From positions 733,145-797,144 of the forward strand of contig CBDBPM010000002.1 of NCBI GenBank assembly GCA_965208735.1: 64,000 nt of DNA, written 5' to 3'. Under the pieces are notes generated by a model. It saw only the letters and a list, made by a program, of their open reading frames with translations, searched no databases and was not told where the DNA came from. The position numbers were made by a program, and so were the translations under genes. Below are positions 21,246-27,862 of this stretch, piece by piece (positions within the stretch are counted from its first letter, which is position 1; every line of letters begins with the position of its first letter). This stretch comes from Candidatus Poribacteria bacterium (GTDB lineage Bacteria; Poribacteria; WGA-4E; WGA-3G).

Positions 21246-22523
21246 ATGGCGACCTATACTGCCCGCGGTGGCAAAGACACCGTCATCACATCCGAAGAAA
21301 AACGCGCACTGCTACACGAAGCACTCCTCAAATTGGGCGGCATCCCGAAAAAGATTCTGGTCATCCCGCCGGATATAACACGTCTCCACTCAAACGCTGG
21401 CGAACTCACCCAAATTCTCTACGAGTTATGGGACACCGCAAACGGCACCACCTTCGACATACTGCCCGCTATCGGCACGCATGCGCCCATGACCGAATCG
21501 CAGATTGCCGAAATGTACGGCGATCTGCCCAAAGCGACATATCACGTCCACAACTGGCGGACCGGATTACACCACTTCGGCGAAGTGCCATCTGAATTCG
21601 TGCAAGAAGTTTCGGGCGGCAAACTCGATTATAGCATTCCTGTCGCCGTAAACCGTCGCCTTGTGGAGGGCGACTACGAACTTATCATCTCTGTCGGACA
21701 GGTAATCCCGCATGAGGTTATCGGCATCGCGAACGGATTTAAGAATGTCCTCGTCGGTACTGGCGGCGTTGAGATGATTAACAAATCGCATTTCCTCGGT
21801 GCTGTAGACGGCATGGAACGCCTCATGGGCCGCACGGATACCTCTGTCAGGAGAGTCCTAAATTACGCGCATGCAAACTACTTGAAACAACTCGGTATTT
21901 TGTATGTCATGAGCGTCATGGATGCCGATGCCTCTGGAGAACGCGTGATGCGCGGGCTTTACGTCGGCGATGATGCCCAGACCTTTGAAACCGCTGCGGA
22001 ATTAAGCAGAGCCGTCAATATGACCTTCTTGGATGAACCGTTATCGAAAGTGGTCGTCTACTTGGATCCGAGGGAGTTTAAAAGTACGTGGCTCGGTAAC
22101 AAAGCAATCTATCGCACCCGGATGGCAATGGCAGACGACGGTGAACTGATTATCATCGCACCCGGACTCCGCGAATTCGGTGAGGACGCTGAAATCGATC
22201 GCCTCATCCGAAAGTACGGCTACAGCGGCACACCTACAACACTCAACGCTGTCTCGGAAAATCCAGAGTTGCAAGAAAACCTCTCAGCGGCTGCGCACCT
22301 GATTCACGGCAGCACCGAAGGACGCTTCAAGGTCACCTACGCGACAGAACACCTCACCCAAACCGAAATCGAATCTGTTGGCTACCAATGGGCACCTGTA
22401 GACCAAGTGATTGCCGAATACAACCCCGAAACCCTCACCGACGGCTTCAACGACGGCGGTTTCTTCTACATCAGCGAACCCGGACAAGGGTTGTGGGCAC
22501 TCCGCTCGCGGTTCAGTTCATAG
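21246..22523 (+). CDS. LarA-like (nickel-dependent lactate-racemase family, DUF2088) protein
   Basis: The six-frame ORF starts at a GTG inside the upstream hairpin (21144). ATG 21246 (MATYTARGG) is preferred. The family call rests on length (~425 aa) and weak motif resemblance (PPDITR, AIGTHAPM, GQVIPHEV). Its last ~200 nt are duplicated downstream (see 26816..26871 and 27730..27862). Confidence 0.5.
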   Translation: MATYTARGGKDTVITSEEKRALLHEALLKLGGIPKKILVIPPDITRLHSNAGELTQILYELWDTANGTTFDILPAIGTHAPMTESQIAEMYGDLPKATYHVHNWRTGLHHFGEVPSEFVQEVSGGKLDYSIPVAVNRRLVEGDYELIISVGQVIPHEVIGIANGFKNVLVGTGGVEMINKSHFLGAVDGMERLMGRTDTSVRRVLNYAHANYLKQLGILYVMSVMDADASGERVMRGLYVGDDAQTFETAAELSRAVNMTFLDEPLSKVVVYLDPREFKSTWLGNKAIYRTRMAMADDGELIIIAPGLREFGEDAEIDRLIRKYGYSGTPTTLNAVSENPELQENLSAAAHLIHGSTEGRFKVTYATEHLTQTEIESVGYQWAPVDQVIAEYNPETLTDGFNDGGFFYISEPGQGLWALRSRFSS

Positions 22524-22566
22524 AAAAACACGACTTTCTCCAGATACACTACATCCATCAGAGACC

Positions 22567-22633
22567 GAGTGAAACCCAACGCTTTGGCTTTGAAGTTTCT
22601 CGAACTTTGGGTGCGTAAAGTTGGGTTTCACTC
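22567..22633. other. Long hairpin (14-bp stem gagtgaaacccaac / gttgggtttcactc, 39-nt structured loop), 44 nt after the LarA-like stop
   Basis: A perfect inverted repeat read directly from the sequence. It is a terminator and/or part of the att-like junction. Confidence 0.5.
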
Positions 22634-22948
22634 CACTCGTAGATAGGTATGCTCGGCTATTGACTTTCAGGCGTATATGACATATCAACGTCCGACTTCT
22701 CAACGCCGTTCAACCCAACCTACAGGACTACTCGCCTTTACCTTTTCTCCCTGAAAATACGATACATTTCATTTATAGTTATACACAAATTTTATCATTT
22801 TTTTATTGAAAAATAATAAAATTAGGCTTATTATAACTTAATGCGGACGTGTGCCTGAAAACTGCATTGAAATGTTCAATATTATTCGTAGCAACTTGGG
22901 TTAGATATTACTTTCCTTCTGACAGTCGAGAAAAGGATTTTAATTTTA

Positions 22949-27237: not shown

Positions 27238-27456
27238 ATGCAACCATTCAAAATTATTGTGGAAAAACATACAGATGGCTATGTCGCCTACCCACTTGGC
27301 TTGAAAGGGGTCGTCATAGGACAAGGCGATACATACAAAGAAAGTGTTGAGGACGTAACCTCTGCAATTCGGTTTTATATTCAGACTTTTGGAAAAGAAG
27401 AACTTGAAATTGAAGAACCTGCCTTAGACGTTTTCGTAACTGAAGTGAGTATCTGA
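27238..27456 (+). CDS. hicB: HicB-like antitoxin (UPF0150/HicB family)
   Basis: 72 aa with RBS aaggagagg. The fold signature is IIVEKHTDGYVAYPLGLKGVVIGQGDTYKESVEDVTSAIRFYI. Its stop overlaps the start of the downstream hicA (ctgATGcc). Confidence 0.6.
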   Translation: MQPFKIIVEKHTDGYVAYPLGLKGVVIGQGDTYKESVEDVTSAIRFYIQTFGKEELEIEEPALDVFVTEVSI

Positions 27457-27695
27457 TGCCGCGTTTTCCAACAGATGCCCCAAAAAACAGAGTTATTCGT
27501 GCGTTGGAGCGATTAGGATACCGTATAATTCGGGAACGGAATCATATTTGTATGGCACGTGAAAATCCGGATGGGAGTCGAAGTGTATTAGTCCTACCGA
27601 ATCATCGGCGCATCAAAGGCTCAACTTTGCGCCGAATTTGTACCCAGGCAGGAATTTCCAGAGATGCTTTTCTAGAAGCTTACCAACTGATATAA
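27456..27695 (+). CDS. hicA: HicA-like mRNA-interferase toxin (YcfA/HicA family)
   Basis: 79 aa. The motif VIRALERLGYRIIRERNHICMAREN..VLVLPNHRRIKGSTLRRICTQAGIS matches the HicA consensus (K...L...G...........GSH..........P.H..I..GTL..I..QAG). Confidence 0.65.
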   Translation: MPRFPTDAPKNRVIRALERLGYRIIRERNHICMARENPDGSRSVLVLPNHRRIKGSTLRRICTQAGISRDAFLEAYQLI

Positions 27696-27729
27696 AAGGA
27701 CAGACCCTCATGAGACTAACTGAATTTAT

Positions 27730-27862
27730 GGCAGTACCGAAGGACGCTTCAAGGTCACCTACGCAACCGGACATCTCACCCAAACCGAAATTGAATCGGT
27801 CAGGCTACCAATGGGCACCAGCGAACCCCGACAAGGATTGTGGGCACTCCGCTCACGGTTTG
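27730..27862. repeat. Degenerate copy 3 of the 3-prime end of the LarA-like gene (133 nt, with an internal ~76-nt deletion relative to 22307..22507)
   Basis: 27730..27816 matches 22307..22396 at about 78 of 88 positions (ggcagYaccgaaggacgcttcaaggtcacctacgc...ggctaccaatgggcacc). 27817..27862 matches the core at 22473..22507. It is frameshifted, so it is a non-functional remnant. Confidence 0.7.

Follow-up and report, generated by a model that had tools for sequence, protein, structure and literature searches.

The interval between a LarA-family gene and a convergent HAD hydrolase gene in Candidatus Poribacteria, sponge symbionts that have not been cultivated, appears to have grown by the repeated addition of foreign modules next to the LarA 3' end. 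The window analyzed here (a 64-kb stretch of Candidatus Poribacteria DNA) carries the LarA-family gene at 21246..22523, followed by three stacked modules (a giant gene, orf70 and a hicBA-like pair), each of which is followed in turn by a displaced copy, or remnant, of the LarA 3' end. These repeats and their counterparts in relatives support serial, LarA-proximal insertion recorded at the LarA 3' end. Homology-anchored addition with one illegitimate join at a recombination hotspot provides the best model for these events, and we put its probability at roughly 60%. The sequence-only reading that preceded this work had proposed serial site-specific insertion at an att-like site; its serial component is upheld, and its site-specific component is not supported, in view of variable boundaries and of the failure to find a junction motif, a nearby recombinase or a free core.

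Copies of the LarA 3' end separate three modules

The features on which the argument draws are listed by window coordinates; loci of relatives are cited by L number.

21246..22523, forward strand: LarA-family anchor gene, 425 amino acids (aa), nickel-pincer-cofactor-dependent putative hexonate epimerase (Pfam Lar_N, 6.7e-16; NCBIfam NF052594)
22458..22516, forward strand: repeat copy 1, the native 3' coding end of LarA (…FFYISEPGQGLWALRSRFS), 59 nucleotides (nt), from repeat finding and alignment
22517..26815, forward strand: youngest added segment, 4299 nt, with a truncated repeat resembling a miniature inverted-repeat transposable element (MITE), a promoter-like site and the giant gene
22526..22731, forward strand: left-truncated copy of the MITE-like repeat, 72.6% match to L015:20601-20778
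22806..22834, forward strand: promoter-like site before the giant gene, TTGAAA-17-TATTAT, 10/12 consensus bases, by consensus match only
22949..26785, forward strand: giant gene, 1278 aa, with a signal peptide, a WD40 propeller, a zincin HExxH region, LRR, Big_1, a dockerin and a FlgD_ig/Por_Secre_tail-like C-terminal domain (Pfam)
26816..26881, forward strand: remnant A, the displaced original LarA 3' end, made up of the 59-nt repeat, last codons AGC GAT and stop codon TAG (26879-26881); nhmmer E=3e-16
26883..26911, forward strand: promoter-like site P, TTGCCA-17-TACACT with TG, by consensus match only
26949..27161, forward strand: orf70, equivalent to the C-terminal 70 aa of a 228-aa PIN-domain protein of other species; orf70 itself matches no family
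27188..27208, forward strand: remnant B, the last ~20 nt of LarA including the stop codon (CTCTCGGTTCAGTGAGTAG), followed by the LarA-hicB spacer of other genomes
27238..27456, forward strand: hicB-like gene in the antitoxin position, 72 aa, overlapping hicA by 1 nt (TGATG)
27456..27695, forward strand: hicA toxin gene, 79 aa (Pfam HicA_toxin PF07927, 2.9e-10, 40.5 bits against a cutoff of 27)
27720..27863, forward strand: remnant C, the oldest displaced LarA 3' end, in two blocks (against 22298-22396 and 22473-22516) with a 76-nt internal deletion
27864..27917, forward strand: spacer that contains a ribosome-binding site and a small hairpin, GGGGTT-TGC-AACCCC (27869-27883); it is homologous to the spacer between LarA and hicB in L018, L042 and L062
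27918..28559, forward strand: membrane-protein gene, 213 aa, weakly Yip1-like (Pfam Yip1 4e-4, below cutoff)
28561..29268, reverse strand: HAD hydrolase gene, convergent with LarA, at which the variable interval has its conserved border on the right (Pfam, synteny)

The anchor gene, which is preceded by an FAA hydrolase gene and a gene for a 277-aa protein, matches the curated model NF052594 ('nickel-dependent putative hexonate epimerase') over residues 12-418 (6.9e-180, 598 bits against a cutoff of 500), and on the strength of this full-length match its product is confidently predicted to be a genuine LarA homologue. Its 3' end contains a 38-nt core (GAACCC…CGCGGTT) that is conserved LarA coding sequence (EPGQGLWALRSRF). 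With up to 3 mismatches allowed, the core occurs at exactly three sites in the 64-kb window (22476, 26834 and 27823), against 0 expected from shuffled sequence, and no copy of it was found elsewhere in the window.

Repeats at 22458-22516, 26816-26874 and 27720-27863 corroborate the initial observation that copies of the LarA 3' end bracket downstream cargo. The second copy shares 54 of its 59 bases with the first. The third consists of a block at 27720-27819 that is ~88% identical to 22298-22396 with two 1-nt insertions, and of a block at 27820-27863 that matches 22473-22516 at 39/44 positions. This last copy had been described as frameshifted and as retaining upstream coding homology; the homology is present, and the copy is more than frameshifted, since it also lacks the 76 nt equivalent to 22397-22472. 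A fourth copy at 27188-27208, consisting of the last ~20 nt of the LarA gene with its stop codon, lies directly upstream of the hicB-like gene and splits orf70 from hicBA, raising the number of cargo segments from the two originally proposed to three. The complete order is thus LarA, giant gene, remnant A, promoter-like site P with orf70, remnant B, hicB-like gene with hicA, remnant C, membrane-protein gene and convergent HAD genes.

Two other origins for the copies were considered and rejected. The core is not a repetitive extragenic palindromic (REP)-like repeat, being confined to the LarA-HAD locus in the 64-kb window and in the loci retrieved from relatives. Nor do the copies stem from a decayed LarA paralogue: no second full-length copy exists in any locus, the longest remnant measures 231 nt, and the intact paralogous LarA genes that the sequence-only reading had named as a sign of gene decay were found at the copy positions of no relative. 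An Rfam scan of 21000-29000 yielded a single, spurious miRNA match and assigned the repeats and a hairpin near the first junction to no described RNA family.

Displaced ends lead into genes that follow LarA directly in other lineages

To place these remnants in context, we compared about 94 loci at the LarA-HAD interval. A LarA-protein scan of a genome collection provided 80 of them (L001-L080), all titled Candidatus Poribacteria or 'uncultured bacterium' and with 75-96% aa identity, and an exact-protein look-up with HicA provided ten more contigs with gene calls (L081-L090), including the key close relatives. A metagenome scan with LarA returned mainly distant homologues (54-68% aa) of other phyla and contributed only L091-L093 and L096, and neither the LarA protein nor the giant or the membrane protein had a match in exact-protein look-ups. 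LarA orthologues are 75-98% identical in aa sequence across the Poribacteria loci L001-L093.

The native LarA end of the close relative L086 is 93-94% identical to remnant A, and the match runs beyond the repeat through the last codons of the L086 gene (AGCGATTAG / AGCGATTAGAT), whereas the alignment of the window's own LarA to L086 ends at 22516. These alignments identify remnant A, which an internal TGA shows to be no longer coding, as the original gene end of this lineage (…RFSD*). The last codons of copy 1 are AGT TCA TAG, as opposed to AGC GAT TAG in remnant A. Positions 22517-22523 of LarA (the last base of Ser424, the last codon and the stop codon) are supplied by the inserted segment, and the last codons of the present gene (…RFSS*) hence appear to have come with the 4299-nt segment at 22517-26815.

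The sequence downstream of remnant A also has counterparts at native LarA ends. In many species promoter-like site P stands directly after the LarA stop codon and before a PIN/orf70 gene, and positions 26814-26919 of the window align to native LarA ends and the promoter regions that lie downstream of them in L019, L040, L007, L003, L012 and others, with the alignment extending through orf70 in L045 and L009. The 228-aa protein of L015 (11297-11983), whose counterpart region in the window is 26912-27161, matches Pfam PIN at 9.2e-5, and the longer form is also present in L003, L007, L019, L034, L036 and L040; the ~430 nt that carry the PIN domain are absent from the window orf70 locus and from L009, L022, L035, L045, L050 and L064. 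Similarly, positions 27185-27696, spanning remnant B and hicBA, align to the native LarA end and hicBA of L043, L011, L024, L029 and L004. The membrane-protein gene at 27918, finally, lies immediately 3' of LarA in L028 and L091, at a distance of 37-53 nt, an arrangement that the sequence-only reading had pointed to as a check in related genomes.

Block 1 of remnant C is 93.75% identical to the LarA gene of L006, compared with 88% to the window's own LarA, and the two orf70 copies present in L045 are 76% and 88% identical to the orf70 of the window. Both observations fit a stacking of diverged alleles, as judged from these identities. The 76-nt deletion of remnant C is common to the window, L086 and L089, while L083 carries an uninterrupted 231-nt remnant and L015 a 182-nt version.

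These data bear directly on local tandem duplication, which would run from within the LarA 3' end to a downstream point and be followed by differential loss or replacement. Such a process needs no foreign DNA and would automatically yield both a LarA 3' remnant and a second copy of the sequence that follows LarA; duplicated modules do occur within single arrays (orf70 twice in L045 and L012, hicB two to three times in L012), and hicB and the membrane-protein gene share a ribosome-binding site and 8 codons, as if a duplicated hicB start had been fused to another gene. The duplicates within one genome are nevertheless divergent, and the divergence of the L045 orf70 copies indicates stacked alleles rather than a recent tandem duplication. 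Furthermore, the sequences after the native end and after remnant A share nothing, so that several additional deletion or replacement steps would be required, the last codons of the two ends differ together with 5/59 positions of the repeat, and the nearest relatives of the giant gene reside in other genomic contexts. We therefore regard tandem duplication as unlikely.

The hicBA module had been named as cargo by the sequence-only reading, and the Pfam match confirms its HicA part; the 72-aa hicB-like protein gave no family match against Pfam, NCBIfam and PDB sequences. By its toxin domain, the pair is predicted to be a HicAB type II toxin-antitoxin (TA) module, with the partner a putative HicB by position. 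The identical HicA protein is recorded in 35 collection blocks and lies beside LarA in 10/10 contigs examined. The start of the hicB-like gene (27238-27261) and that of the membrane-protein gene (27918-27941) have in common a ribosome-binding spacer and the first 8 codons (MQPFKIIV / MQLFRIIV; ATGCAACnnTTCAnAATTATnGT), after which the two genes are wholly divergent. This shared start is kept also where the membrane-protein gene directly follows LarA (L028), and its conservation suggests an old in-frame fusion that may have retained the hicB translation start.

The LarA-HAD interval is hypervariable and its states are nested

The flanks of the interval are conserved across relatives, with the FAA hydrolase gene and the gene for the 277-aa protein upstream, and two HAD hydrolase genes followed by QueC-like, MFS and NuoF-like genes beyond it. 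The interval itself ranges from an empty state, in which the LarA and HAD stop codons lie 2-28 nt apart (L070, L075, L076 and L077, all from more distant species), through a LarA-hicB(A)-HAD order found in many species, to arrays of up to nine co-oriented genes. The genes met in these arrays include hicBA, PIN/orf70, a PemK/MazF pair, an FAD oxidoreductase, PhyH, LamG proteins, ~660-aa WD40 proteins, a Uma2 nuclease, a Schlafen-like helicase, a type III methylase and an IS605 TnpB.

Four relatives display intermediate states. In L083 the order is LarA, hicBA, the 231-nt remnant and the membrane-protein gene. L086 (~94% identical in LarA) presents LarA, hicBA, remnant C with the 76-nt deletion and the membrane-protein gene together with an IS605 element, without orf70 and without the giant gene. 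L015 carries LarA, PIN/orf70, hicB, a truncated hicA, the 182-nt remnant and the membrane-protein gene, and L089 (~95%) has the full window architecture, with its giant gene broken by an insertion sequence (IS). The modules are consequently nested in their distribution: the hicBA event is seen in L083, L086, L015, L089 and the window, the orf70 event in L015, L089 and the window, and the giant gene in L089 and the window only.

This nested pattern, in which the newest module would lie nearest LarA, has to be read in the light of a mosaic locus that is not inherited in a strictly vertical manner. Every few hundred nt LarA changes its nearest relative, and identity between the window and L089 varies by segment from 80% (the first HAD gene and the 3' part of the giant gene) to 100% (the middle of LarA and promoter-like site P). 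We also sought a clean donor tract in LarA, in the form of a drop in identity upstream of 22516, and found the gene too mosaic for a single breakpoint call.

Two further observations concern the interval and its border. The HAD gene at 28561-29268 is only ~80% identical in L089, L086 and L090, whose flanking genes are 96-98% identical, and these identities suggest that the HAD allele of the window, on the right-hand side of the interval, has been replaced. Immediately 3' of LarA, other species carry a toxin gene of PemK/MazF type and its 72-aa partner (L055:11445-11980, L053 and L059:7789-8256); a LarA remnant of ~56 nt and a relic of hicB come next in L055, and the module represents a third TA family at the LarA-adjacent spot.

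Remnant boundaries vary between events

We took the final ~300 nt of LarA from the window and the 80 loci to build an nhmmer profile, searched the loci with it at a threshold of E<=0.01, and detected LarA 3' remnants in 18 loci besides the window among the 94 compared. All profile-detected remnants are on the LarA strand, lie inside the LarA-HAD interval and run to the gene end, and each continues into sequence that is found directly after an intact LarA in some other genome. An equivalent profile of the HAD 3' end, run against the interior of the intervals, detected no HAD remnants, indicating that the process is one-sided.

The boundaries of the remnants differ between events. In window coordinates, their left ends map to 22297 (L083, 231 nt uninterrupted), 22298/22299 (L086, L089 and the window), 22343 (L015), ~22440 (L018), 22456/22457 (remnant A in the window and L089), 22461 (L052) and 22468-22484 (L062, L055 and a class following a ~660-aa WD40 gene). 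Shorter relics were recognized by eye in L058 (~31 nt), L010 (~27 nt), the window (remnant B, ~20 nt) and L059 (~9 nt). Repeat lengths of independent events are accordingly at least 231, ~76, 59, ~59, ~56, ~45 and ~20 nt. Variation is seen on the right as well, where the repeats end at 22516 in the giant-gene event and 2 nt past the stop codon in the WD40/PIN event, and extend through the ribosome-binding site and the first 8 codons of the downstream gene (+85 nt) in the hicBA/membrane-gene event. No motif common to the junction sequences was found, and many adjoining modules in relatives meet at stop codons without an intervening core.

Such boundaries are difficult to reconcile with site-specific integration, in which small integrase-less elements with an attP mimicking the LarA 3' end would have been inserted in tandem by an integrase encoded elsewhere, as are cis-mobilizable elements next to integrative and conjugative elements (ICEs). 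Several features of the locus do agree with it: each cargo lies between direct repeats of the target 3' end and the gene is restored, the remnants are all co-oriented and limited to the LarA-HAD locus, several left ends cluster at 22457-22484, the process is one-sided, and empty sites exist in other species, although they are seen between species only. Against it, repeats spanning from ~20 to at least 231 nt with variation at both ends depart from the constant boundary of an att site, and the core is ordinary conserved coding sequence. A degenerate core pattern had 0 matches in IMG/VR, and the 235-nt LarA end gave no blastn match in phage or plasmid collections. Moreover, each cargo comprises between one and three genes, oriented as in an operon, cargo 1 has a truncated MITE-like repeat as its left end, and the modules of relatives that abut at stop codons lack the expected core.

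The search for a recombinase was also negative. No tyrosine or serine recombinase was found among 40 window open reading frames (ORFs) scanned, in line with the initial report that no integrase lies within the window; the search did not extend to ORF 62580-63986 or to the genome outside the window, and most other window ORFs were covered via syntenic relatives. Likewise, no such recombinase was found in annotated genes within +/-10 kb of the ten relatives L081-L090, or in the recurrent array families of L001-L080. The only related genes met in this search were IS605 TnpB and other IS transposases, the sole transposase-like gene of the window being an IS605 TnpB (42493-43614). Taken together, these results render site-specific integration distinctly unlikely.

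An integron-like cassette array, in which the LarA end would play the part of attI and the remnants that of attC-like sites, would account for tightly packed co-oriented genes, for the position of the newest module beside a fixed site and for variable-length repeats with a conserved 3' part. The core site of integron attC is GTTRRRY. The repeats of this locus end in CGGTT followed by C or T and AG, which does not fit that consensus (no covariance-model scan was performed), and the remnants are homologous to coding sequence instead of forming imperfect palindromes. In addition, no IntI-type integrase was found, the genes upstream of LarA being the FAA hydrolase gene and that for the 277-aa protein, and no repeat separates most adjacent modules in relatives. 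A cassette array of this type is exceedingly improbable.

A looser proposal is that the LarA 3' end serves as an attI-like site for an unrecognized recombinase encoded elsewhere, which would capture single genes or small operons in one orientation, with the varying lengths of the remnants reflecting erosion of originally uniform sites. In a softer version, TA modules located after LarA would bias the locus towards addition, as cells losing the resident module die; if this were true, the locus would be a self-extending array. We consider these ideas very unlikely.

The youngest segment contains the giant gene and a truncated MITE-like repeat

The 4299-nt segment is common only to the window and its ~95% relative L089, which has both of its junctions. 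When the window and L089 are aligned to L086, the left junction falls after CAG, at 22516/22517 and within the Ser424 codon, and repeat finding places the right junction at 26815/26816.

The left part of the segment had been noted for a long hairpin at the first junction (22567-22633). The hairpin exists, with a 14-bp perfect stem and a fold z-score of only -1.7; a role as a junction or att structure was rejected, because it corresponds to the internal hairpin of a dispersed MITE-like repeat. The complete copy of this repeat, L015:20531-20770, is ~240 nt long, with 17-nt terminal inverted repeats that match each other perfectly (GTAGGTTGGGTTGAACG) and with a 14-bp hairpin inside. The copy in the window lacks the left ~44 nt and retains the right terminal inverted repeat at 22707-22723, and the repeat end is found in six loci at unrelated positions (among them L007:18847, L018:6645, L024:745 and 12578, L038:6716, L089:4268). 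On the basis of its terminal inverted repeats and multiple dispersed copies, the element at 22526-22731 is classified as a putative MITE-like dispersed repeat. The left end of the 4299-nt segment is hence a truncated MITE-like repeat and not an element terminus.

The product of the giant gene, whose zincin HExxH region scores below Pfam cutoffs, belongs to a large and dispersed Poribacteria family with 184 homologues at E<=1e-10. The nearest of these (81% aa) lies in an unrelated context (L171), and shorter WD40 relatives are regular array members in other species. We looked for a donor allele, in which LarA would be directly followed by the giant gene, through a protein search with the zincin region, and the nearest homologues were located in unrelated contexts.

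In L089 (4510-9327), the giant gene is split by an insertion that carries an IS1595-type zinc-ribbon ORF. Relative to the window, the 5' part of this gene is 88% identical and the 3' part 81%, and the preceding 429 nt are 99.3% identical, which amounts to a sharp mosaic inside one gene. Separately, an intergenic stretch of ~109 nt upstream of the FAA hydrolase gene (window 19016-19121) is 82.6% identical to L171:2030-2136. L171 is a TARA ocean contig in which the matching stretch lies upstream of the nearest homologue of the giant gene, and this stretch may represent another short dispersed repeat.

Homology-anchored addition as the favored explanation

In the model that we favor, the region between LarA and the convergent HAD gene would be a hotspot to which new DNA is added repeatedly on the LarA side. 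The incoming DNA would be another lineage's allele, consisting of a LarA 3' part and its downstream genes. Its left join would form by homologous recombination within conserved LarA, and its right join would be illegitimate (non-homologous), located within the 3' end of the resident LarA or a little beyond it. Such a product would correspond either to a linear fragment that entered through homology-facilitated illegitimate recombination or to a circularized fragment that entered through a single crossover. The donor LarA end would keep the gene intact, and the resident end would be shifted downstream as a non-coding remnant that remains attached to the resident's downstream genes.

Applied to the window, the model predicts three events. 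The first would have placed hicBA before the membrane-protein gene, leaving remnant C; the second, the PIN/orf70 gene and its promoter before hicBA, leaving remnant B; and the third, the giant WD40-protease-LRR gene before orf70, leaving remnant A, with the youngest module nearest LarA. In support of this scheme, remnant A with promoter-like site P and orf70 matches the LarA end, P and orf70 of L045, L009, L019 and L040, remnant B with hicBA matches the LarA end and hicBA of L043, L011, L029 and L004, and remnant C with the spacer and the membrane-protein gene corresponds to the LarA-Yip1 arrangement of L028 and L091. The remnants would erode after each event. Long repeats are expected to be unstable, as recombination with the native end would delete the insert, and this instability would explain why most surviving repeats are of 76 nt or less or are interrupted, as is remnant C. 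Retained resident TA modules and promoter-proximal sequence may in turn favor addition over replacement. Both the polarity of growth as a process and the recombination mechanism are what we infer from these products.

Several points weigh against this explanation. The left ends of five or six of the ~seven events lie within 40 nt (22440-22484), a clustering that we attribute to erosion and repeat instability and that would also be expected of a preferred site. The one-sidedness revealed by the lack of HAD 3' remnants does not follow from simple homology-anchored recombination by itself. The adjacency of LarA and the giant gene is known, besides the window, only from L089, which already has remnant A, and the donor of the giant-gene segment is hypothetical because no other LarA-giant-gene allele was found. 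In addition, microhomology at the illegitimate joins can be judged only with parental sequences, and no natural competence or other route of DNA uptake is known for these uncultivated bacteria.

Other features of the window

Outside the LarA-HAD interval, the window carries a mobile and defense gene cluster at 42493-49025 on the reverse strand. It is composed of the IS605-family TnpB gene (42493-43614), an AbiEii-like AAA ATPase gene (43825-44979), a gene for a NUDIX protein, a C-5 cytosine methylase gene (46947-47924) and a HindVP-type restriction endonuclease gene (47940-49025). A separate N4/N6 DNA methylase gene lies at 59051-59965 on the reverse strand. A conserved 854-aa protein encoded at 9907-12471 on the forward strand has no Pfam match, and its orthologues show only weak or faint DDE_Tnp_1 matches in precomputed annotations.

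Comparison with known systems

Integrase-borne islands are known to accumulate at the 3' ends of tRNA and protein-coding genes, where tandem accretion can involve integrase-less cis-mobilizable elements (CIMEs), as exemplified by ICESt1/CIME at fda in Streptococcus thermophilus. The LarA locus resembles these systems in that the cargo is enclosed by direct repeats of a gene 3' end, the gene is restored and tandem arrays can form. It differs from them in its variable boundaries and in that no integrase was found, whereas in those islands the att core and crossover are fixed and the integrase family can be identified. This comparison cautions that repeated fragments of a gene 3' end around cargo are insufficient, alone, to call an att site or a mobile element. 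The locus also resembles TA and defense hotspots between core genes, since HicA, PIN and PemK/MazF toxins, Uma2, a Schlafen-like helicase and a type III methylase occur in one interval in different species; unlike at such hotspots, the fossil anchor ends provide an unusually explicit order of additions.

The closest parallel lies in the arrays of orphan C-terminal and immunity genes at rhs and cdiA loci and in the effector-immunity arrays of the Vibrio cholerae type VI secretion system (T6SS), for which an additive displacement model has been proposed (Kirchberger et al. 2017, PMC5361080). As in those arrays, the conserved anchor is intact, incoming modules adjoin it, and older modules are displaced, some of them preceded by 3' pieces of the anchor; displaced modules, here orf70, hicBA and the membrane-protein gene, are homologous to modules that occupy the primary position elsewhere. 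Those arrays likewise involve no recombinase, and homology-facilitated illegitimate recombination was put forward for them. Here, in contrast, the anchor is the gene of a metabolic enzyme, the cargo is made up of TA modules together with genes for a membrane protein and a secreted repeat protein, and none of the retained genes is an immunity gene.

Homology-facilitated illegitimate recombination was demonstrated by experiment in Acinetobacter, Streptococcus and Pseudomonas (de Vries & Wackernagel 2002; Prudhomme et al. 2002; Meier & Wackernagel 2003, cited in PMC5361080), and also in E. coli conjugation (PMC3240628). It shares with our model the addition of foreign DNA through one homologous anchor and one illegitimate join of variable position; those studies were experimental, and at the LarA locus the process is deduced from its products alone. 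Mechanistically, then, the locus contains nothing unprecedented and opens no long-standing question. It works like the sequential-displacement arrays, yet outside the polymorphic-toxin families, suggesting that sequential displacement, so far described at polymorphic toxin loci, operates beside an ordinary metabolic gene. With a datable anchor piece for each addition and intermediates in relatives, it provides a readable growth record of a variable gene array in uncultivated sponge symbionts.

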